A stretch of DNA of 64,000 nt from an uncultured Pseudoteredinibacter sp. Lineage in GTDB: Bacteria > Pseudomonadota > Gammaproteobacteria > Pseudomonadales > Cellvibrionaceae. Below the pieces are notes generated by a model. That model searched no databases, was not told the DNA's origin, and saw nothing but the letters and a program-made list of their open reading frames with translations. The position numbers and the translations under genes are program-made. Of this stretch, positions 17 through 40,705 are shown in pieces; position 1 is the stretch's first letter, and every line of letters starts with the position of its first letter. Location of the stretch: contig NZ_CANMYE010000014.1 of assembly GCF_947502065.1 (NCBI RefSeq), forward strand, positions 140-64,139, in the 5' to 3' direction.

Positions 17-44
17 GGGGTCAGATCCCTTGGGATCTGACCCC
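17..44 (-). repeat. REP-like palindrome, T-type (GGGGTCAGATCCC-TT-GGGATCTGACCCC)
   Basis: Perfect 13-bp inverted repeat with a 2-nt loop. A variant of the family flank (GGCTCCGA) lies on the minus strand at 45-57. Confidence 0.9.
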
Positions 45-28745: not shown

Positions 28746-30656
28746 TTAGTAGATATCCTTCGCAAAAAGCGTGAATGGCGTCTTAGCCAATATCTTCATA
28801 TCCAGCCACAGCGACCAGTTATTGATATAGGCCATATCAAACTCCACACGCTTTTCCATTTTATCCAGCGTTTCTGTTTCACCGCGGCAGCCGCTTACTT
28901 GGGCTAGGCCTGTGATGCCAGGCTTAATTCTGTGGCGCGCTAAATAGCGGTTTATTTTTTTGCTATAAAAGTGATTGTGCGCTACTGCGTGTGGGCGCGG
29001 GCCCACTAGGCTCATGCGGCCCTGCAATACATTTATTAGTTGGGGCAGCTCATCGATGGAAGTGCGGCGAATAAATTTACCTATGGGGGTTACTCTATCG
29101 TCGTTTTTGGTCGCTTGTTTTACTTCGCCGCCTGCCTCATCGTGTTGGCGCATGCTGCGGAACTTCCACACTTCAATAATGCTGCCATCCCAGCCGTGGC
29201 GCTGCTGCTTAAAAATTACTGGGCCTTTCGAGCTTAGTTTTACCAGTGCCGCTATGGTTAGCATGATGGGCGATAGCGCAATTAGGGCCAGTAATGCGAT
29301 GCTTCTATCCATTAAGTCTTTTAGCACGGTAGATAAGCGCGAGCTGGTTAGCGGGCTTTCGTTTAGTGATATCAGTGGTACGCCGCCCACTTCACGTACT
29401 GAGTGGTTTACTAGGTTTAGGGCAGAGATATCTGGTGCCCAGATGATGTCTACATTGGCATCCATTAGCTCGATGTTTAGTTTGCTTACTTGTTGGGATA
29501 GCAACATAGGCAGGGCTATGTAGATGCGTTTTATGCCGCAGGCTTCTACGATTTTTATTAGCGAGCTGATGTGGTTTATTTCTGTGTAGGCGGCCAGCTC
29601 TTCTAGTTTTTGTTTTTGGGCTTGGTTTTTGTTGTGGTTTACTACTAGGGATAGGCGGTTTGTGAATGAGGCTGGGGCCGCATTTTGATTAGTGGCTTCG
29701 ATTTTGGGGTCAGATCCCTTGGGATCTGACCCCGTGTGTGGCGTTGCTTCGCTCGCCTTGAACTCTGTGAAGGCGGGTTTGTTTAGGTAGGTGCTGCTTA
29801 GCTTGCCGATGATGGGGACGTTGGCTAGTTTGCGGTTTAGCTTTACGTTGAATAGGCGCTTGCGCTTTTGGGCGAAGACATCGAGTGTTTTTTCTTCGCC
29901 TAATTCTTGTGCGGCTGCGTATTCGCTTTCGGCTACGCTGGTTTGTAGCCCTGGCTGTAAATCCGGCTCGCCCTCTACTTTAATTGTAGCCACTACATTA
30001 TCGCGCACCCATGGGTTGCGGTTTAGGCTGTTTACTAATTGCTGGGCGATTGCTCCGCTACCGATAACTAATGTGGGTATAGAGTGGGAATGGTGAGCGC
30101 GATACATACGCGTTAAATAATGGAAGGCAAAGTAAGCAGCTATTTGGCCTGCCCATGCTGTTGCAAACCACACTAATAAAACTTCGCGCGAATAGGTGAC
30201 GCTGGTTTTGGTAATAAAACCCAGCACTGCCAACAAAGCGACTGTAGTAGCCCATGCAATACTAATGCGCAGCACACTATTAAAGTGCCCTGTCGATCGG
30301 CGGTGTATGCCTTGGCTGCTATATACAAAGGCAATGGCAAAGGCACTGAGCACCGCAAGCACACGATAGTCAGAGCTGATAGCACCCATCTTTATATAGG
30401 CAAGCGTGCAAAGGCTGGCAACTACCCAAGCGATATCGCAGGCCAGTTGTAAAAATGCCACTAGGTTTTGATTGTTTTTTAGCAGGCGCCGGCCTTGAGG
30501 CACATCTACCCCTGCCTGGGGCAATATTGCCTGCTGAATAGCTTCAGAATTTACGGCGGCGCCAAATGCCGGCTCGTTTAACCCTGCCTGCTGTATGTTG
30601 TTGTTTGCTATATGCTCGCCTGCCATATTGGCGGCGTGATTTCCCTGTGACTCCAT
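28746..30656 (-). CDS. wcaJ: Undecaprenyl-phosphate glucose phosphotransferase with a large internal insertion
   Basis: N-terminal TMs, LVIGSG, KFRSM, RRTSIDELPQL, MSLVGPRP and KPGITGLAQV. At 636 aa it carries an extra low-complexity segment containing a REP. Confidence 0.92.
   Translation of the reverse strand: MESQGNHAANMAGEHIANNNIQQAGLNEPAFGAAVNSEAIQQAILPQAGVDVPQGRRLLKNNQNLVAFLQLACDIAWVVASLCTLAYIKMGAISSDYRVLAVLSAFAIAFVYSSQGIHRRSTGHFNSVLRISIAWATTVALLAVLGFITKTSVTYSREVLLVWFATAWAGQIAAYFAFHYLTRMYRAHHSHSIPTLVIGSGAIAQQLVNSLNRNPWVRDNVVATIKVEGEPDLQPGLQTSVAESEYAAAQELGEEKTLDVFAQKRKRLFNVKLNRKLANVPIIGKLSSTYLNKPAFTEFKASEATPHTGSDPKGSDPKIEATNQNAAPASFTNRLSLVVNHNKNQAQKQKLEELAAYTEINHISSLIKIVEACGIKRIYIALPMLLSQQVSKLNIELMDANVDIIWAPDISALNLVNHSVREVGGVPLISLNESPLTSSRLSTVLKDLMDRSIALLALIALSPIMLTIAALVKLSSKGPVIFKQQRHGWDGSIIEVWKFRSMRQHDEAGGEVKQATKNDDRVTPIGKFIRRTSIDELPQLINVLQGRMSLVGPRPHAVAHNHFYSKKINRYLARHRIKPGITGLAQVSGCRGETETLDKMEKRVEFDMAYINNWSLWLDMKILAKTPFTLFAKDIY
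29706..29733 (+). repeat. REP palindrome, T-type, inside the wcaJ coding sequence
   Basis: GGCTTCGATTTT-GGGGTCAGATCCC-TT-GGGATCTGACCCC; translates in frame as (T)GSDPKGSDP(K). Confidence 0.95.
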
Positions 30657-34250: not shown

Positions 34251-35891
34251 TTAGTTCTTTTTGCTGCGGCCGAAGGCGGTTACTGCGCAGCGGTGTGAAA
34301 GTAGATCTACGGTGCGGATGTTATAGTCGCCGCCGCTGGCTTCTAGGGTGGTTACCATTTGGTGGCTATTGGACTCTTGTTCTACTTTGTAAATTTGCTC
34401 TTGATTTAGTGGGTAGCGTACTGGATCGCCTTCGGCCATGCCTACTAGCAGATCAGCTTCGCAGCGCACTTTTGCACGGGTGATATCTGGCTCGCCCTGT
34501 AATGCGAAGCGCATGGTTAGTTCGCAAGCTTTTACTTCTTTATCGTCGGTGCGTTGGCAGGCTAGTAGTTCTTTTTCTAGGGTTAGCAGAACGGGTTGGC
34601 CTGTTGGGTTTGATTGTCTTTTTCTTGTTGTAGCGCTGCTTGGTTTTGCTTGTTCGGGCTCAGCAAGGGAAGCATTGCCAGCCAGGCGATCTTTAAAGCT
34701 TGGTGTTGTGGACGTTGGCGGCTCGGTTTTTGCGCTTTGTTTTTGCATTGGGTGGTTGCTGACGAGGTTATCTGGGTTTTCTTCTGGCCATGGGGTTTTG
34801 TTAGCGGGCTGGTTGGGCCTCGCTGCTGTTTTTGTGCTTGCTGTTATTTGGGTGCCGGTATTAGGGTCAGAACCGATTGGGTTCTGACCCTGGGTTTGGG
34901 CTTCTGCTTTTGTGTTTGCTGCGGTTTGGGTGCCGGTATTAGGGTCAGAACCGATTGGGTTCTGACCCTGGGTTTGGGCTGCTGCTTTTGTGCTTGCTGC
35001 GGTTTGGGTGCCGGCATTAGGGTCAGAACCGATTGGGTTCTGACCCTGGGTTTGGGCTGCTGCTTTTGTGGTTGCTGCGGTTTGGATGCCGGTTTTAGGG
35101 TTAGAACCGTTTAGGTTATGACCCTGGGTGTTTGTTGGCTTGGTGGCGGATTTGGGGTCGGAACCCTTGGGGTTCTGACCCCGGATTGGTTGAGGTTTTA
35201 CCTTTGTTTTTGCTAGGGCGTTTATTGTGGCCCAGTCTTTTTTTAGGAAGTGGGCAGCTACCCAACCGTGTAGGCGTTTGCCATCGTTGTTTGGATCTAT
35301 GGTGGTTATTCTGGCCCAGCCGTTATCTTTGTTATACACCATTACTGGGTGCTCAAATGGTATGGCGCTTAGGCGGATGTGTTTGGTGCTGGGGCCGCTG
35401 CGCACTTTTAGCGATTTAGTTTTCACTTGATGTGGTACGCCTTCACCTATGGGGTGAGGCTGTACTAACGCGGTGAATTCTGCAGCGTTGGTTTTTTTAT
35501 TTCTTTTTGGGCGGTTCGATACTGGGTCTACTTTAATATAGCGTGATGACATCCAGCCAGTGCGTTGTTGTTTGCCCTTGGGTAGGTTTTTATTGATAAA
35601 ACTGACTTCTGTCCACTCTCCTTGTACGCGTAAGCGAGTGACTACATGGCCTTTATTTAGCTGGCTAATGCCGGGGTAATCAGAGCCTGGGCCTTGGCGA
35701 ACTTTGACGAAGTTGGCGGTGATTACGCCGTATTCGGCCGCTTGGGATTTTGGGGTTGTTATTGGGGTGGTTAGTAGGGTGACTAGGGTTAGTGCCAGTA
35801 GGTAGAGTGGGGTCAGACCCCGTGGGGGTCTGACCCCGGTGGTGGTGTTGGTGAAGCTGTTTTTAAACTGGCCTATTTTTGCTGCTGGCAT
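34251..35891 (-). CDS. Secreted protein with two bacterial SH3 domains, a REP-derived repeat linker and an unknown C-terminal domain
   Basis: Signal-like N-terminus; VKVRQGPG..W and LKVRSGPS..NGWA SH3b motifs; (T/A)QGQNPIGSDP repeats; Cys-containing C-terminal domain. Confidence 0.8.
   Translation of the reverse strand: MPAAKIGQFKNSFTNTTTGVRPPRGLTPLYLLALTLVTLLTTPITTPKSQAAEYGVITANFVKVRQGPGSDYPGISQLNKGHVVTRLRVQGEWTEVSFINKNLPKGKQQRTGWMSSRYIKVDPVSNRPKRNKKTNAAEFTALVQPHPIGEGVPHQVKTKSLKVRSGPSTKHIRLSAIPFEHPVMVYNKDNGWARITTIDPNNDGKRLHGWVAAHFLKKDWATINALAKTKVKPQPIRGQNPKGSDPKSATKPTNTQGHNLNGSNPKTGIQTAATTKAAAQTQGQNPIGSDPNAGTQTAASTKAAAQTQGQNPIGSDPNTGTQTAANTKAEAQTQGQNPIGSDPNTGTQITASTKTAARPNQPANKTPWPEENPDNLVSNHPMQKQSAKTEPPTSTTPSFKDRLAGNASLAEPEQAKPSSATTRKRQSNPTGQPVLLTLEKELLACQRTDDKEVKACELTMRFALQGEPDITRAKVRCEADLLVGMAEGDPVRYPLNQEQIYKVEQESNSHQMVTTLEASGGDYNIRTVDLLSHRCAVTAFGRSKKN
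34863..35182 (+). repeat. Five REP-derived palindromes inside the SH3 gene (34863-34891, 34941-34969, 35019-35047, degenerate 35097-35125, 35154-35182)
   Basis: AGGGTCAGAACC-GATTG-GGTTCTGACCCT at exact 78-bp spacing, then 57 bp to the last copy. Confidence 0.93.
35809..35837. repeat. REP palindrome within the SH3 protein N-terminal signal region
   Basis: GGGGTCAGACCCC-GTG-GGGGTCTGACCCC; reads GVRPPRGLTP on the minus strand. Confidence 0.88.
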
Positions 35892-35975: not shown

Positions 35976-37394
35976 TTATTCTTTTGTTCTGCCGTAGTCG
36001 TCTTGTAAGCGTACGATATCATCTTCGCCTAGGTATGAGCCCGATTGTACTTCAATCATTTCTAGGGGAATCATACCTGGGTTTTCAAGGCAGTGTATTA
36101 CACCGATTGGGATGTAGGTGGATTCGTTTTCGCTGAGTAGTAGTGTGTTGTCGCCGTTGGTTACCTTGGCTGTACCACTAACCACGATCCAATGCTCGGC
36201 GCGGTGGTGATGTTTTTGCAAGCTAAGTTTTGCACCTGGGTTTACGGTAATACGTTTTACTTGGTAGCGCTCGCCTGCGTCGATGGAATCGTATTTGCCC
36301 CATGGGCGATACACTTCGCGGTGCTGCACATGTTCGCTGCGGCCTTCTTTTTTTAGTGTGCTAACAATATCTTTTACTTCTTGCACTCGGCTGCGATCAG
36401 CGACTAACACAGCATCTTTGGTATCCACGATGACTAAGTCATCTACACCGATGGTGGCGATTAATTTTTCTTGAGCGATAACAAAGTTATTGTGACTGTC
36501 TTTATCTATCACGTCGCCTTGGTGAACATTGCCATCAGCATCTTTTTCTTTGATATCCCATAGGGCCGACCAGCTGCCGACATCGCTCCAACCAGCATCC
36601 AATGGTAATACTACCGCTTGATCGGTTTTTTCCATTACTGCGTAGTCGATGGAATCGTCTGGGCAGGCTTCGAAGGCTTCCTTGTTGATTCTTAAGAAGT
36701 CTAAATCGGCAGCAAGGTTTTGAGAGGCTTGCTCGCAGGCTTGGAATATATCCGGGCGATATTCTTTTAGCTCTTCTAGATAACGATCAGCGCGGAATAG
36801 GAACATACCGCTATTCCATAAGTATTCACCACTGGCTAGGTAGCTTTCTGCGGTGGCTAAATCTGGTTTTTCTACGAAGGCATCTACCTTAAAGGCATCG
36901 GCTTGGGCTTCGCCTTGGCGAATATAGCCATAACCTGTAGCGGGGCTATCGGGTACGATGCCGAAGGTGACTAGCTTGCCATCGCGGGCAATGGGTAAAG
37001 CCTGTTGTACGACGCGCTGGAACTCTTGAGTGTTTTCTATGACATGATCGGCCGCCAATACCAATAAAAGCTGGCTGCCCTCACCTTTCTGTTGAGCTCT
37101 AAAGGCTGCCAAGGCAATGGCTGGGGCGGTGTTGCGGCCAATGGGCTCTAATAAGATTTCGGCTTTGGTATCTAACTGGCGTAAGTGCTCGGCTACCAAA
37201 AAGCGGTGTTCTTCGTTGGTAATAATGGTGGTTTGGTGATCGGCCAAGCCCTCAAGGCGCTGCACGGTTTCTTGCAGCATGCTGCTGTCGCTATTGAGGT
37301 TTAGAAACTGCTTCGGATAGGCCGTGCGGGACATAGGCCACATGCGAGTACCCGAGCCACCAGCCATGATGACGATATTCAGATCTGCAGACAT
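35976..37394 (-). CDS. manC: Mannose-1-phosphate guanylyltransferase / mannose-6-phosphate isomerase
   Basis: [46 protein letters not shown] and [13 protein letters not shown] motifs. Confidence 0.95.
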
Positions 37395-37586: not shown

Positions 37587-37614
37587 GGGGTCAGATCCCG
37601 TGGGATCTGACCCC
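37587..37614 (+). repeat. REP palindrome, T-type
   Basis: GGGGTCAGATCCC-GT-GGGATCTGACCCC. Confidence 0.92.
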
Positions 37615-37712
37615 GGGTGTGGGCACGACGGTTGTGGCCTTGCTGTTTTCTATGGAGGAGCTGTGGATTCGTTTTAGTACTGGCTTTGAATTTTAGATCA
37701 CGGCTTCGACGT

Positions 37713-37740
37713 GGGGTCAGATCCCTTGGGATCTGACCCC
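37713..37740 (+). repeat. REP palindrome, T-type, 5 bp from the RAYT stop codon
   Basis: CGGCTTCGACGT-GGGGTCAGATCCC-TT-GGGATCTGACCCC. Confidence 0.93.
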
Positions 37741-37745
37741 GAGTG

Positions 37746-38327
37746 TTAGGTGGTTCGGATTGATTGGATTTGTTTGGGGTTTAACGCTTCTTGGAAGAGG
37801 TTTTGGTAGTTGGTTTGTTTTTGTTCTTTGGTATTTCCTAAAGAATCATATATGGAATGAGCTGTTGTAAGATTGTCACTTTTGCCAAATGCATTGCAGT
37901 TGTAGCTGGACCATTTGTATTGGCTAGGGTGGTTAACTAAGCCAGCTCGGACGGGGTTTAGCTCTACGTAACGATAAGCACACAACAGGTAACTATCGTG
38001 AGTAATTTGCTTTGAGCGGTAGCGGCCTTGCCAAAGTGTGCCACTGCGCTGGTATTTTTTGTTGTAGTAGTTGCTGTAGGCAATGCTTAGGGTTTGCATC
38101 ATTTTTGAGGGGGCGTTTGATTGCTCTGCTGTACAGAGTAGATGGATGTGATTACTCATGAACACCCAAACGTGGATGCTTACTTTGTAATGGCTGGACT
38201 TTGTTCTTAGTAGGCTTAGGTATTTTACGTGGTCTTGCTCGTCGTGGAAAACTTGTTGCCGATTGCAGCCGCGCTGGACGATATGGAGGGGAATGCCTGG
38301 GGTGGTTTGGCGGGGCTGTCTTGGCAT
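37746..38327 (-). mobile_element. REP-associated tyrosine transposase (RAYT, HUH/Y1 TnpA family)
   Basis: MPRQPR..PGIPLHIVQRG start, HUH motif SNHIHLL, LWQGRY, catalytic Tyr in RYVELNPVRAG, YKWSSY; flanked on both sides by palindromes. Confidence 0.92.
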
Positions 38328-38380
38328 TTTGGAGTTACCTTTGGGGGTTGGATTTGAGCTTTAGTTCTCGGCTTCGATAT

Positions 38381-38420
38381 GGGGTCAGATCCCTAGGGAT
38401 CTGACCCCGTTCTGACCCCG
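38381..38420 (+). repeat. REP palindrome, T-type, plus a duplicated right half-arm
   Basis: CTCGGCTTCGATAT-GGGGTCAGATCCC-TA-GGGATCTGACCCC, then GTTCTGACCCCG. Confidence 0.92.
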
Positions 38421-38428
38421 TTTTGGTT

Positions 38429-38575
38429 TTAGGTTTTGATTTCTGCTTTTTGTTTGGCTAGGCCATATTTTATGAAGGCGAAGTTAATGGTTTTGTAGGG
38501 GAAGATGGCTTTGCTTTTGTCTGAGCACTGAATGACGTGTAGTGGGATTATTTGGGGTCTTTGTTTGCTAGGCAT
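38429..38575 (-). pseudogene. Decayed 5' fragment of a second RAYT-like gene
   Basis: MPSKQRPQIIPLHVIQCSDKSKAIF aligns by eye with the RAYT start MPRQPRQTTPGIPLHIVQRGCNRQQVF; AAGAGAG precedes the ATG. Confidence 0.55.
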
Positions 38576-38699
38576 GGTGTTTTCTCTTTTTTTGAGGTTT
38601 GTTTTAGTTTGGTGATTTGTTTGATGGTAGGTATCAGCCAAGTGGGTGGTTTGTGATTTTGAGCTTGGGTAATTTGGTTTATGGCGTTGTGTTTTTGGT

Positions 38700-38907
38700 G
38701 GTGTTTTTGGTGTGGTTGTAGCTTTGGGATCTCGGCTTCGAGATGGGGTCAGATCCCGAGGGATCTGACCCCGGGTGTGTGGGTATTTGGGTTCTGCTTT
38801 TGTTGTTCTTTAAGGCGTTTTTTTTGGGTGGGTGTTTTTGGGGTGGTTGTAGCTTTGGGATCTTGGCTTCGATGTGGGGTCAGATCCCTTGGGATCTGAC
38901 CCCGGGT
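38700..38907 (+). repeat. Two 77-bp direct repeats (38700-38776, 38831-38907), each carrying a T-type REP (38745-38772, 38876-38903)
   Basis: GGTGTTTTTGG.GTGGTTGTAGCTTTGGGATCT.GGCTTCGA..TGGGGTCAGATCCC..GGGATCTGACCCCGGGT repeated at 131-bp offset. Confidence 0.92.
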
Positions 38908-38930
38908 TAGGCCGCGAATTTGATGGCTAT

Positions 38931-38956
38931 AAAAAAACCAGGCCGGGGCCTGGTTT
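38931..38956 (-). terminator. Rho-independent terminator of aceEF
   Basis: Minus strand reads AAACCAGGCC-CC-GGCCTGG then TTTTTTT. Confidence 0.85.
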
Positions 38957-39049
38957 GGAAGGTGTTAAAGAGAGAGAAAATCTTTAATCGCTTTGCTGTT
39001 GTTCTAGCTAGCCATTAAGACAAGCTAGAGCAACTAGCTACTTCGCTAA

Positions 39050-40705
39050 CTAGAGTAATAAGCGGCGGATATCGCTTAGCGTGGCTACTAGGTTTGTGAA
39101 GAAGCGGCCGCAATCGGCGCCGTTGATGGCGCGGTGATCGTAGCTGAGTGACAGCGGTAGCATTTGCCTTGGCTGGAACTCTTTGCCATCCCACACTGGT
39201 TGGATAGAAGCTTTTGATACTCCCATGATAGCCACTTCCGGTGCGTTGACGATTGGGGTAAAACCTTTACCGCCCATGGCACCTAAGCTTGAAATGGTAA
39301 AGCAAGCGCCTTGCATATCTTTTGGCATTAATTTGCCATCGCGGGCTTTGCCAATTAGCTCGTTTACTTCATCAGCAATTTGCCATAGGCCTTTTTTATC
39401 CACATCGCGTAATACCGGCACCAATAAACCTCGCGGTGTATCGGCTGCAATACCAATATGCACATAATCTTTGCGCACGATATTTTCGCCATCGCTGTGC
39501 AAAGAAACATTAAAGCTTGGCTCGGCGCGCAAGGTGGCGGCTACGGCTTTAATTAAAAACGGTAGCGGTGTTAATTTGCTGCCACGCTTTTCGGCTTCGG
39601 CTTTCATGCTTTTACGGAAAGCTTCTAGCTCGGTGATATCGGCATCGTCAAACTGCGTTACATGGGGAACGTTCAGCCAGTTACGGCTCATGTTCTGGGC
39701 CGTAATTTTTGCAATTTTACTCAGCGGCTCAATACTTATCGGGCCAAACTGGCTGTGATCAACGTGAGGGATTTCTGGAATACCCGCACCGGATGACAAC
39801 TTGCCGGATTTAACATCTTCGATAATCGTCTTGGCGTGATTGCGAACATCTTCTTTGCTTAAACGCCCGCGTGGGCCACTGGCTTTTATTTCAGAAAGCT
39901 CTACACCCAACTGTCGTGCCAACTGGCGCACTGCAGGGCCTGCATAAAATGCCGTTTCAGGGCCAGGCTCAATAGTGGCTACTGTTGCTGGCGGCGGTGC
40001 TAGTTTTGCTTCGCCAGAGCTTTCTGCAGCAGGTGCTGGTGCCGCTGTAGCTGGCTCGGCTTTGGGATCAGTAGCTTGAGAGGCAGCAGCCACAGGTGCC
40101 GCAGCCACTACAGCCTTAATGCGACCAATGCTCTGTCCCTTGTTTATCTTACCGCCTTCGCTAACATCCAAAGATACGATGGTACCGGCATGCTCAGCAG
40201 GAATTTCCATCGAGGCTTTGTCGGTTTCCAAAACAATAATGGAATCGCCTTCGGCAACTTCATCACCGGCTGCCACGCAAACTTCGATAACATCAACATC
40301 TTCTGCGCCACCAAGATCGGGCACGATGATATCAATTTCAGTTTCTGTCGCCGCAGTTTCGACAGCTGGCTCAGCAACTTTCTCTGCGGCTTTATCTGCA
40401 ACAACGACTTCTTCAACGGCTGGTGCTGCCGCTTTTTCTTCAACAGGCGCCGATTCAGAAGCAACCACTTCGATATCAACTAAAGCATCGCCTTCATTTA
40501 ATTTACCACCTTCGCTGATATGCACAGCCGTTACTTTACCGGCTTTGGTGCAAGGCACTTCCATGGTGGCTTTATCGGTTTCTAGCACTACGATAGATTG
40601 CTCAAGCTCTAGCTCGTCACCTACCGCAACACAAACCTCAATGACTTCTACGTCGCTGGCTCCGCCCAAGTCAGGTACGGATAAAGTTTCAATACTCATA
40701 TCCAC
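39050..40705 (-). CDS. aceF: Pyruvate dehydrogenase E2 dihydrolipoamide acetyltransferase (two lipoyl domains)
   Basis: Two VLETDKA lipoyl motifs, AGPAVRQLAR E3-binding region, catalytic SYDHRAINGA. Confidence 0.96.
   Translation of the reverse strand: MDMSIETLSVPDLGGASDVEVIEVCVAVGDELELEQSIVVLETDKATMEVPCTKAGKVTAVHISEGGKLNEGDALVDIEVVASESAPVEEKAAAPAVEEVVVADKAAEKVAEPAVETAATETEIDIIVPDLGGAEDVDVIEVCVAAGDEVAEGDSIIVLETDKASMEIPAEHAGTIVSLDVSEGGKINKGQSIGRIKAVVAAAPVAAASQATDPKAEPATAAPAPAAESSGEAKLAPPPATVATIEPGPETAFYAGPAVRQLARQLGVELSEIKASGPRGRLSKEDVRNHAKTIIEDVKSGKLSSGAGIPEIPHVDHSQFGPISIEPLSKIAKITAQNMSRNWLNVPHVTQFDDADITELEAFRKSMKAEAEKRGSKLTPLPFLIKAVAATLRAEPSFNVSLHSDGENIVRKDYVHIGIAADTPRGLLVPVLRDVDKKGLWQIADEVNELIGKARDGKLMPKDMQGACFTISSLGAMGGKGFTPIVNAPEVAIMGVSKASIQPVWDGKEFQPRQMLPLSLSYDHRAINGADCGRFFTNLVATLSDIRRLLL

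Follow-up and report, generated by a model that had tools for sequence, protein, structure and literature searches.

REP/RAYT systems and related elements

Systems in which repetitive extragenic palindromic (REP) sequences accompany a REP-associated tyrosine transposase (RAYT) are common. How REPs are copied is still unsettled, and almost all models of the process make use of inverted REP pairs and a GTAG foot. Here we describe a RAYT gene and its REPs within a 64,000-nucleotide stretch of DNA, referred to below as the window, from an uncultured Pseudoteredinibacter species. The window corresponds to C14:140-64139 of the source genome G000, a draft assembly of 4.75 Mb in 57 contigs with a G+C content of 46%. 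Judged from sequence comparison, the gene is likely to encode a single RAYT that is functional (by the measure of selection) and cognate to the REPs of its genome, and that belongs to an old, tail-less sub-lineage which has kept to one site, where it lies inside a head-to-tail REP array. The kind of system is a known one and its layout unusual: the REPs are direct rather than inverted and harbor no conserved GTAG foot, the enzyme is tail-less, and a small conserved open reading frame (ORF) is found beside it. What is new here is the presence of an inversion breakpoint at the locus and the homology of the conserved 48-aa ORF to the N-terminus of the RAYT.

Among described enzymes, E. coli TnpAREP, also called RayT or YafM, is the best profile and structural match to the RAYT of the window (Ton-Hoang 2012, Messing 2012, Corneloup 2021). 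Both have the Y1 HUH fold, are encoded by a single-copy gene that is bracketed by REPs dispersed across the genome, and presumably recognize a hairpin in single-stranded DNA. The two proteins are, however, only ~18% identical, and the RAYT here has ~30 extra residues on the C-terminal side of the core. The REPs also differ, since the E. coli palindromes are imperfect, require a GTAG foot, and occur as inverted pairs (bacterial interspersed mosaic elements, BIMEs), whereas those described here are perfect palindromes with a 13-bp stem that run head to tail without a conserved GTAG.

By description, the group 3 REPtrons, including those of S. maltophilia (Sm) and Marinomonas MWYL1 (Mb), agree with the present system in the form of their REPs, which are perfect palindromes with one copy placed right after the stop codon; in the marine gammaproteobacteria the REPs are also concentrated around the gene (Nunvar 2010, Corneloup 2021). 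They are described, however, with inverted flanking REPs and GT(A/G)G heads, and the descriptions hold no accessory small ORF. REPINs resemble the present system in being short, non-autonomous repeats that are tied to a vertically inherited, single-copy RAYT and are gone where the RAYT is absent, but a REPIN consists of two inverted REPs that form one long hairpin, in contrast to the predominantly direct neighbors found here (Bertels and Rainey 2011). Finally, the IS200/IS605 elements, such as IS608 and ISDra2, have a related catalytic domain. In IS608 and ISDra2 the hairpins of both ends are found on the same strand, as they are at the RAYT locus. Unlike these insertion sequences, the RAYT is present in one copy at a chromosomal site that is fixed across species, and for this one gene there are more than 100 short repeats.

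The transposase and its site

The 193-aa product matches the Pfam family Y1_Tnp (PF01797) with an E-value of 2.3e-16. Its NHIH and RYVELNP motifs, at residues 59-62 and 119-125, respectively, contribute the columns N59, H60, H62, Y120, E122, N124, and P125, which are invariant in an alignment of 57 sequences. The HUH and tyrosine motifs are thus intact, as an earlier annotation made from the DNA letters alone (the sequence-only reading) had stated. When a family profile is compared with the PDB, the top match is E. coli TnpAREP (4ER8, 2.5e-6), followed by the IS200/IS605 transposases; a phmmer search of the PDB with the single RAYT sequence gave no match at E<=0.01. An AlphaFold2 model is confident across all 193 residues, with a predicted local distance difference test (pLDDT) value of 93.7 and a predicted template modeling (pTM) score of 0.90. 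Foldseek again places chain A of 4ER8 first (E 6e-9, TM-scores 0.62/0.72). Since the model is confident throughout and 160 of the 165 E. coli residues can be aligned with it, the protein is predicted to hold the entire known catalytic fold.

Within G000, tblastn finds one full match to the gene, which is therefore the only RAYT of its type in the genome, together with two remote Y1 genes of another kind. Insertion sequences of the IS200/IS605 type occur in several copies, with the gene moving along with its ends, and a single-copy gene does not behave in this way; the NCBIfam model transpos_IS200 likewise gives the RAYT only 32 bits against a cutoff of 55. The gene lies between aceF (39050-40705) and manC (35976-37394), beside a set of polysaccharide genes, so that the unit does stand at the junction between the exopolysaccharide (EPS) locus and aceEF, where it had originally been placed. 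The same site upstream of manC is occupied in G003, G004, L013, L014, L035, and L036.

The cognate REPs

Perfect palindromes of the form GGGGTCAGATCCC-nn-GGGATCTGACCCC, with two arms of 13 nt separated by 2 nt, start at positions 37587, 37713, 38381, 38745, and 38876; the pattern has 10 matches in the window and none in 100 shuffled versions of it. The cognate REPs of the genome conform to the palindromic consensus GGGGTCAGA(T/A/C)CC..GG(A/T/G)TCTGACCCC. Read on the RAYT-coding strand, a full copy takes the form ..CGTGC..CACC-[palindrome]-AnnTCGAAGCCGAGATCTAAA, and both ends of the 98-nt linker downstream of the RAYT are conserved REP flanks that occur genome-wide. The core is a perfect palindrome in which each REP holds both arms, and the hairpin accordingly folds identically on either strand. 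On the side regarded as the head, the bases are mostly (G/A/T)TGG, with about half of the oriented copies showing GTGG, ATGG, or TTGG; the opposite side reads CCGG. A GTAG displaced from the head was considered as a general feature of these REPs and rejected because, although enriched, it is present in only 19% of copies. A second hairpin in the flank, ATCTCG-GCTT-CGAGAT, forms in some copies but is not general.

The occurrence of the REPs follows that of the transposase. The RAYT is present in 3 of the 6 genomes of the genus, and allowing no more than 1 mismatch these three contain 115 (G000), 114 (G003), and 122 (G004) REPs, whereas the RAYT-less congeners G001, G002, and G005 contain 0, 0, and 0. 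Such co-occurrence is what a RAYT and its cognate REPs would be expected to show. Under a strict definition G000 has 165 REPs in 86 clusters, within a range of 165-218 genome-wide.

The loci of two more distant RAYT homologues, L004 (1286-1301 and 2188-2203) and L017 (1142-1180 and 1946-1997, with two copies per side), are flanked by non-palindromic inverted repeats of the sequence AAGTGGGGTCAGAT(G/A)AA, which share the GGGGTCAGA core with the REPs of G000. Because these homologues bear AAGTGGGGTCAGAT as simple inverted ends, the REP of G000 looks like two ends brought together.

Direct orientation of the REPs

The two REPs that bracket the RAYT gene lie within a 50-nt direct repeat (37691-37740 and 38359-38408) that includes the flank ..TCTCGGCTTCGAnnT on the + strand, its copies being 88% and 82% identical to a reference for the REP family. 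At the orthologous locus of G004 the direct match extends over 53 nt at 96% identity. The sequence-only reading was therefore right to report that the flank-bearing REPs on the two sides face the same way. By their flanks, in fact, all six REPs at 37587-38903, between manC and aceF, have the same orientation.

The same reading regarded this layout as atypical of REPtrons, which is correct in respect of relatives but not in making it a peculiarity of the locus. Among ten loci of more distant homologues, 7 have significant inverted flanking repeats and 0 have direct ones. Within G000, though, direct orientation is a genome-wide property of the REP family: neighboring REPs within 400 nt form 48 direct and 3 inverted pairs when oriented by flank motifs, and 53 direct and 4 inverted pairs when oriented by the bases beside the stem. 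The inverted doublets that define REPINs are thus the rare form here. The flanking REPs also depart from the inverted arrangement of the classical REPtron (Nunvar 2010), with the caveat that the 28-nt core holds both arms; since this core is palindromic, the meaning of direct orientation is blunted. The two REPs face the same way because the gene sits inside a head-to-tail array of REP-plus-linker units. Arrays in the genome have repeat periods of 78, ~121-131, ~140, ~179, and ~199 nt. No consistent relation was found between REP orientation and the direction of neighboring genes. In some copies, for instance at window positions 17-44, the bases beside the stem (T/A...G versus C...A/T) and the longer flanks point in opposed directions, as though a segment made up of the palindrome and a single base on either side were able to turn around between its flanks.

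Of the explanations that compete with a RAYT-driven spread of units, the one that survives best is that the direct arrays are ordinary tandem duplications, produced by slippage or unequal crossing-over, in which case the RAYT merely lies between copies and orientation is irrelevant to the enzyme. Within one array the linkers are alike, while the part shared between arrays is confined to the ~25-nt ends; copy number varies among species and inside a gene for a secreted SH3_3 protein; clusters of "singletons ... reiterated in tandem" have been reported (Di Nocera 2013); and the hairpin folds in the same way on both strands. All of this is consistent with simple duplication. Dispersed single copies, however, retain the ~25-nt flanks on both sides, which indicates that the spreading unit exceeds the hairpin. 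In addition, head-to-tail dimers are absent or rare in most REP families (Di Nocera 2013), whereas direct pairs prevail here by 48 to 3, and an indel of a 121-nt unit near the RAYT has left a half-arm footprint rather than a clean loss of the unit. We regard duplication alone as a possible but less likely account than a RAYT that spreads REP-plus-linker units.

Distribution of the REPs and descent of the system

The REPs are not uniformly dense, and their concentration near the RAYT, which the sequence-only reading had noticed, is borne out genome-wide. Five REP clusters lie no more than 5 kb from the gene, where 0.18 would be expected, and all 21 REPs of the window are located at or below position 38903. 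The REP-rich region can be followed beyond the contig. The end of contig C4 and the start of C14 fall within one 130-nt array and share an exact overlap of 67 nt, and in G004 purD and the RAYT are 42 kb apart on one contig; owing to this overlap and linkage, the end of C4 and the start of C14 can be taken as neighbors in G000. The joined 57-kb stretch beside the RAYT contains 45 of the 165 REPs (27%). The T-type contributes 23 of its 52 copies, the A-type 17 of 95, and the C-type 5 of 16. Contigs also break within arrays at C14:66854-67139, just past the end of the window (C-type, with a period of ~130 nt), and at C4:448529-448917 (T-type, ~121 nt). The REP counts of this draft assembly are lower bounds for that reason.

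The 57-kb stretch includes genes with the polysaccharide-related domains Wzy_C, Bac_transf, Epimerase_2, UDPG_MGDP_dh, and Polysacc_synt_3, but also prmA, dusB, purD, and crp. Nearly all REPs had been said to fall within the EPS region. This is true of the window, but in the genome as a whole 73% of the REPs are found outside the 57-kb stretch, and the stretch itself reaches into housekeeping genes. As the REP-rich stretch extends past the EPS genes, the pattern is one of closeness to the RAYT, and the proposal of a RAYT-driven remodeling aimed at the polysaccharide locus is not upheld.

Some REPs in this region are found within coding sequences. In the ORF at 34251-35891 (-), five 78-nt REP units at 34864-35181 translate in frame into 26-aa repeats (..GQNPIGSDP..). 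They lie in the linker of the secreted SH3_3 protein, whose orthologue in L013 is 50 aa shorter, and a C-type REP at 35810-35836 is read as GVRPPRGLTP near the N-terminus of the same protein. A T-type REP at 29707-29732 lies in frame within the ORF at 28746-30656 (-), between the CoA_binding_3 and Bac_transf domains of a priming sugar transferase.

A concentration of REPs around the RAYT is also known from Marinomonas and other marine gammaproteobacteria, and it has been explained there by the recent arrival of the REPtron, with REPs multiplying outwards (Nunvar 2010, Corneloup 2021). A recent horizontal arrival in the present clade would account for the same pattern and for the patchy presence of the RAYT in the genus, in half of the genomes. 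Against it, a RAYT that is 55% identical, accompanied by the same small ORF, is found upstream of manC in another congeneric lineage (L035, L036, and L037). Within the RAYT-bearing clade, the synonymous divergence (dS) of the RAYT among close orthologues, 0.28-0.55, is similar to that of manC, 0.30-0.33. The nonsynonymous divergence (dN) of the RAYT is ~6-7 times that of manC in near and far comparisons alike, and this constant ratio fits vertical descent. Moreover, REPs occur in frame within conserved genes, and most of them are dispersed over the genome. A recent arrival is therefore improbable, and we favor an old resident RAYT.

A short but old C-terminus

Most homologues of the RAYT are ~230 aa in length. 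Beyond the invariant residue R191 they have a median of 37 residues, in comparison to 2 here, the shortest tail among the 57 aligned sequences, so the expectation that homologues would be some tens of residues longer was accurate. The distance of 5 bp reported between the TAA stop codon (37746-37748) and the next REP (37713-37740) was likewise correct. The stop codon lies within TAACAC, which resembles a recurrent 5' flank of the REPs. A REP near the stop codon is not in itself a sign of abnormality, contrary to what had been suggested: a REP close to the stop is typical of RAYTs (Nunvar 2010), and a REP is found 1-4 nt after the stop at five homologue loci (L004, L005, L008, L009, and L017). 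In this respect the locus agrees with the classical REPtron.

The length of the protein is stable among its close relatives. Orthologues at 90-92% identity (in G003, G004, and two Joint Genome Institute (JGI) contigs) are exactly 193 aa in length, and the REP 5 bp after the stop recurs in G003, G004, L013, and L014; alignment with the nearest RAYTs thus gives the outcome that had been named as decisive against a clipped gene. With a dN/dS ratio of 0.06-0.10 among close orthologues, the gene is under purifying selection. When the RAYT-manC spacer at four orthologous loci was searched in all six frames for the tail positions 193-230 (hmmsearch --max, with a 230-position profile built from 104 long homologues), there was no match. 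Given the conserved length, the purifying selection, and the complete predicted fold, the short C-terminus does not represent a recent lesion.

Comparison with the sister lineage places the loss further back. There manC is 91.5% identical with a dS of ~1.6, and the RAYT is also tail-less. One sister copy ends in ...GVKPKGV*, with these seven codons and the stop being encoded by a REP, and in the other the stop codon immediately precedes a half REP. From the sequences of the two lineages, the loss of the tail predates the split of the RAYT-manC lineages, and it probably took place at a REP. The idea that a REP clipped the C-terminus consequently fails as a description of fresh damage, but an ancient truncation determined by a REP, and tolerated since, is plausible. 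In two homologues from other lineages, P0066 and P0074, shortened tails contain GSDP or GSEP, the translation of GGGTCAGA(T/A)CCC, which suggests repeated capture of RAYT 3' ends by REPs.

The view that a recent REP insertion clipped a longer RAYT, so that the REPtron would be aberrant and its gene impaired or in decay, draws on the missing tail, the stop codon in a REP-like flank, and the REP-encoded ends in L035, P0066, and P0074, but it is very improbable in the face of an identical length and REP junction in four relatives at a synonymous divergence of 0.28-0.55, the low dN/dS, the equally tail-less sister lineage, the lack of a downstream tail remnant, a confidently modeled complete fold, and more than 100 near-perfect REPs that are confined to RAYT-bearing genomes.

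A conserved 48-aa ORF related to the transposase

G003, G004, and L013 all retain the short ORF that lies upstream of the RAYT, and L035 and L037 have it at 60-64% identity. Among close relatives its dN/dS is 0.04-0.16, and its variable sites are distributed over codon positions 1:2:3 as 1:2:10. Its nucleotide identity is 93-97%, as against 75-84% in the 230 nt upstream. In a profile comparison, residues 1-26 of the ORF align to residues 1-28 of the RAYT in register from the first methionine (probability 94.5%, E 7.6e-8). The possibility that the ORF is a decaying relic of a RAYT (tblastn E 0.06) was ruled out by the dN/dS and codon-position tests. Taken together, the comparisons indicate that the ORF is derived from the N-terminus of a RAYT and is under selection at the level of its protein product.

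The ORF is found solely beside tail-less RAYTs; it was not detected in the 1.5-kb flanks of more distant RAYTs, nor elsewhere in the genome. A Pfam search with it gave no match and a word-indexed protein search no candidates, while a HMMER scan of 1.84 billion representative proteins returned one true relative, of 47 aa, together with three repeat-driven matches. Tentatively, the ORF may represent a domesticated fragment of the RAYT N-terminus, comprising the first strand and first helix, that is made as a protein and influences the RAYT system; it could inhibit the transposase, partner with it in assembly, or compete for the hairpin. That its product controls or assists the transposase is a guess.

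Table 1. Features of the RAYT locus in the window
Feature	Positions	Strand	Remarks
T-type REP, perfect palindrome, outer copy of the REP doublet on the downstream side of the RAYT	37587-37614		Has the ..CGTGCCCACACCC flank, without the TCGAAGCC flank
Linker of 98 nt in a REP-linker-REP unit	37615-37712	-	Ends TCGAAGCCGnGATCTAAA and CGTGC..CACCC (RAYT-sense strand)
T-type REP 5 bp past the RAYT stop codon	37713-37740		Pattern match
Gene for RAYT (TnpAREP-like Y1 HUH transposase), 193 aa, tail-less	37746-38327	-	ORF, Pfam, alignment
T-type REP (38381-38408) plus asymmetric flank; upstream of the RAYT, 53 nt from its start	38359-38408		Same orientation as the downstream REP
Half REP arm GTTCTGACCCC (+ strand) adjoining the full REP	38409-38419		Footprint of the 121-nt unit indel
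ORF of 48 aa (MPSKQRPQIIPLHVIQ...), 101 nt upstream of the RAYT start	38429-38575	-	Between two REPs
Two head-to-tail 99-nt REP units beside the aceF stop	38678-38907	+	Starts 131 nt apart; REPs at 38745-38772 and 38876-38903; clade-specific synteny breakpoint

Rearrangement and turnover of the locus

The gene that follows aceF in G001, G002, and the more distant G005 encodes a 228-aa protein, and the one before manC in G001 and G002 is a 493-aa chorismate-binding gene. An empty RAYT site was sought in the RAYT-less congeners, but aceF and manC are not neighbors there. The order in L035 is 493-aa gene ... small ORF-RAYT-manC. In G000, however, the 493-aa and 228-aa genes adjoin one another on contig C2 (C2:167770-167972), and on C14 aceF adjoins the REP array upstream of the RAYT, which is then followed by manC, leaving a clade-specific breakpoint interval at window positions 38904-39049. 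Most simply, this gene order would be explained by one inversion, with one end immediately upstream of the RAYT cluster and the other immediately after aceF. No REP is found at the reciprocal junction (C2:167.77-167.97 kb).

Against an expectation of 0.87 REPs per 25 kb, the 493-aa gene side (C2) has 6 and the RAYT-manC side (C14) has 15, whereas the 228-aa gene side (C2) and the aceEF side (C14) have 0 each. The counts thus follow the old linkage, and for this reason we place the local spread of REPs first and the rearrangement later.

There are also signs of change on a smaller scale. Upstream of the RAYT, the species differ in their REP counts (2, 3, 3, and 4). Between the small ORF and the RAYT, G004 and L013 have a 121-nt REP-plus-linker unit (at L002 1289-1420 and L013 5790-5920) that G000 and G003 lack; the latter two keep a half arm (GGGGTCAGAAC) as its footprint. 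Since this distribution departs from the RAYT divergences, gain or loss of the unit is recurrent.

A proposed mechanism and the case against it

By analogy with E. coli TnpAREP and with the IS200/IS605 TnpA proteins of IS608 and ISDra2, the enzyme would bind a REP hairpin in single-stranded DNA and cut beside it. Cuts at two REPs on the same strand would free a REP-plus-linker unit, and rejoining of this unit beside another REP, mostly one nearby, would generate both the direct arrays and the REP-dense neighborhood of the gene. Host slippage or unequal recombination probably alters array copy number as well. Later, a large rearrangement, most simply one inversion, brought aceEF up against the array and divided the REP-rich neighborhood.

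A number of observations weigh against this mechanism and against the broader reading of the locus as a functional RAYT within an array of its own REPs. The activity is assigned by analogy, and the direct arrays could come from slippage or recombination alone. The two rules for orienting a REP, by flank motifs and by stem-side bases, conflict for 30 of 103 REPs, and the canonical GTAG head is not conserved, with a GTAG displaced by ~25 nt in 22 of 116 copies. Across clusters, REP orientation has no association with the sign of the GC skew (Fisher P 0.59), so a lagging-strand bias of the REPs is unsupported. The RAYT scores 76 bits with the NCBIfam model REP_Tyr_transpos (model positions 19-146 of 146), below the cutoff of 80; the sub-lineage is divergent and the shortfall marginal, and the threshold is a curated one rather than a biological property. 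The single inversion is read from draft assemblies. Lastly, the absence of the RAYT in G001 and G002 is read as loss, where separate gains at one site could give the same pattern.

Implications

The locus leaves the known kind of REP/RAYT system unchanged while widening its known range. It offers a REP family that spreads as direct REP-plus-linker units around a gene flanked in the manner of an IS200/IS605 element, a transposase that, judged by selection, works without the usual C-terminal tail, and, beside it, a small conserved ORF that stems from the transposase. The genus provides a compact natural comparison, in which sister species that have the RAYT and ~115 REPs can be set against sister species that have neither. 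REP arrays at an inversion breakpoint and in-frame REPs within polysaccharide genes represent concrete cases of REPs shaping genome structure. If the proposal for the small ORF is true, its 48-aa product would be the first accessory protein described for the REP/RAYT system, and the ORF together with the loss of the tail would mark a distinct, two-gene type of REPtron that spreads REP-plus-linker units head to tail.

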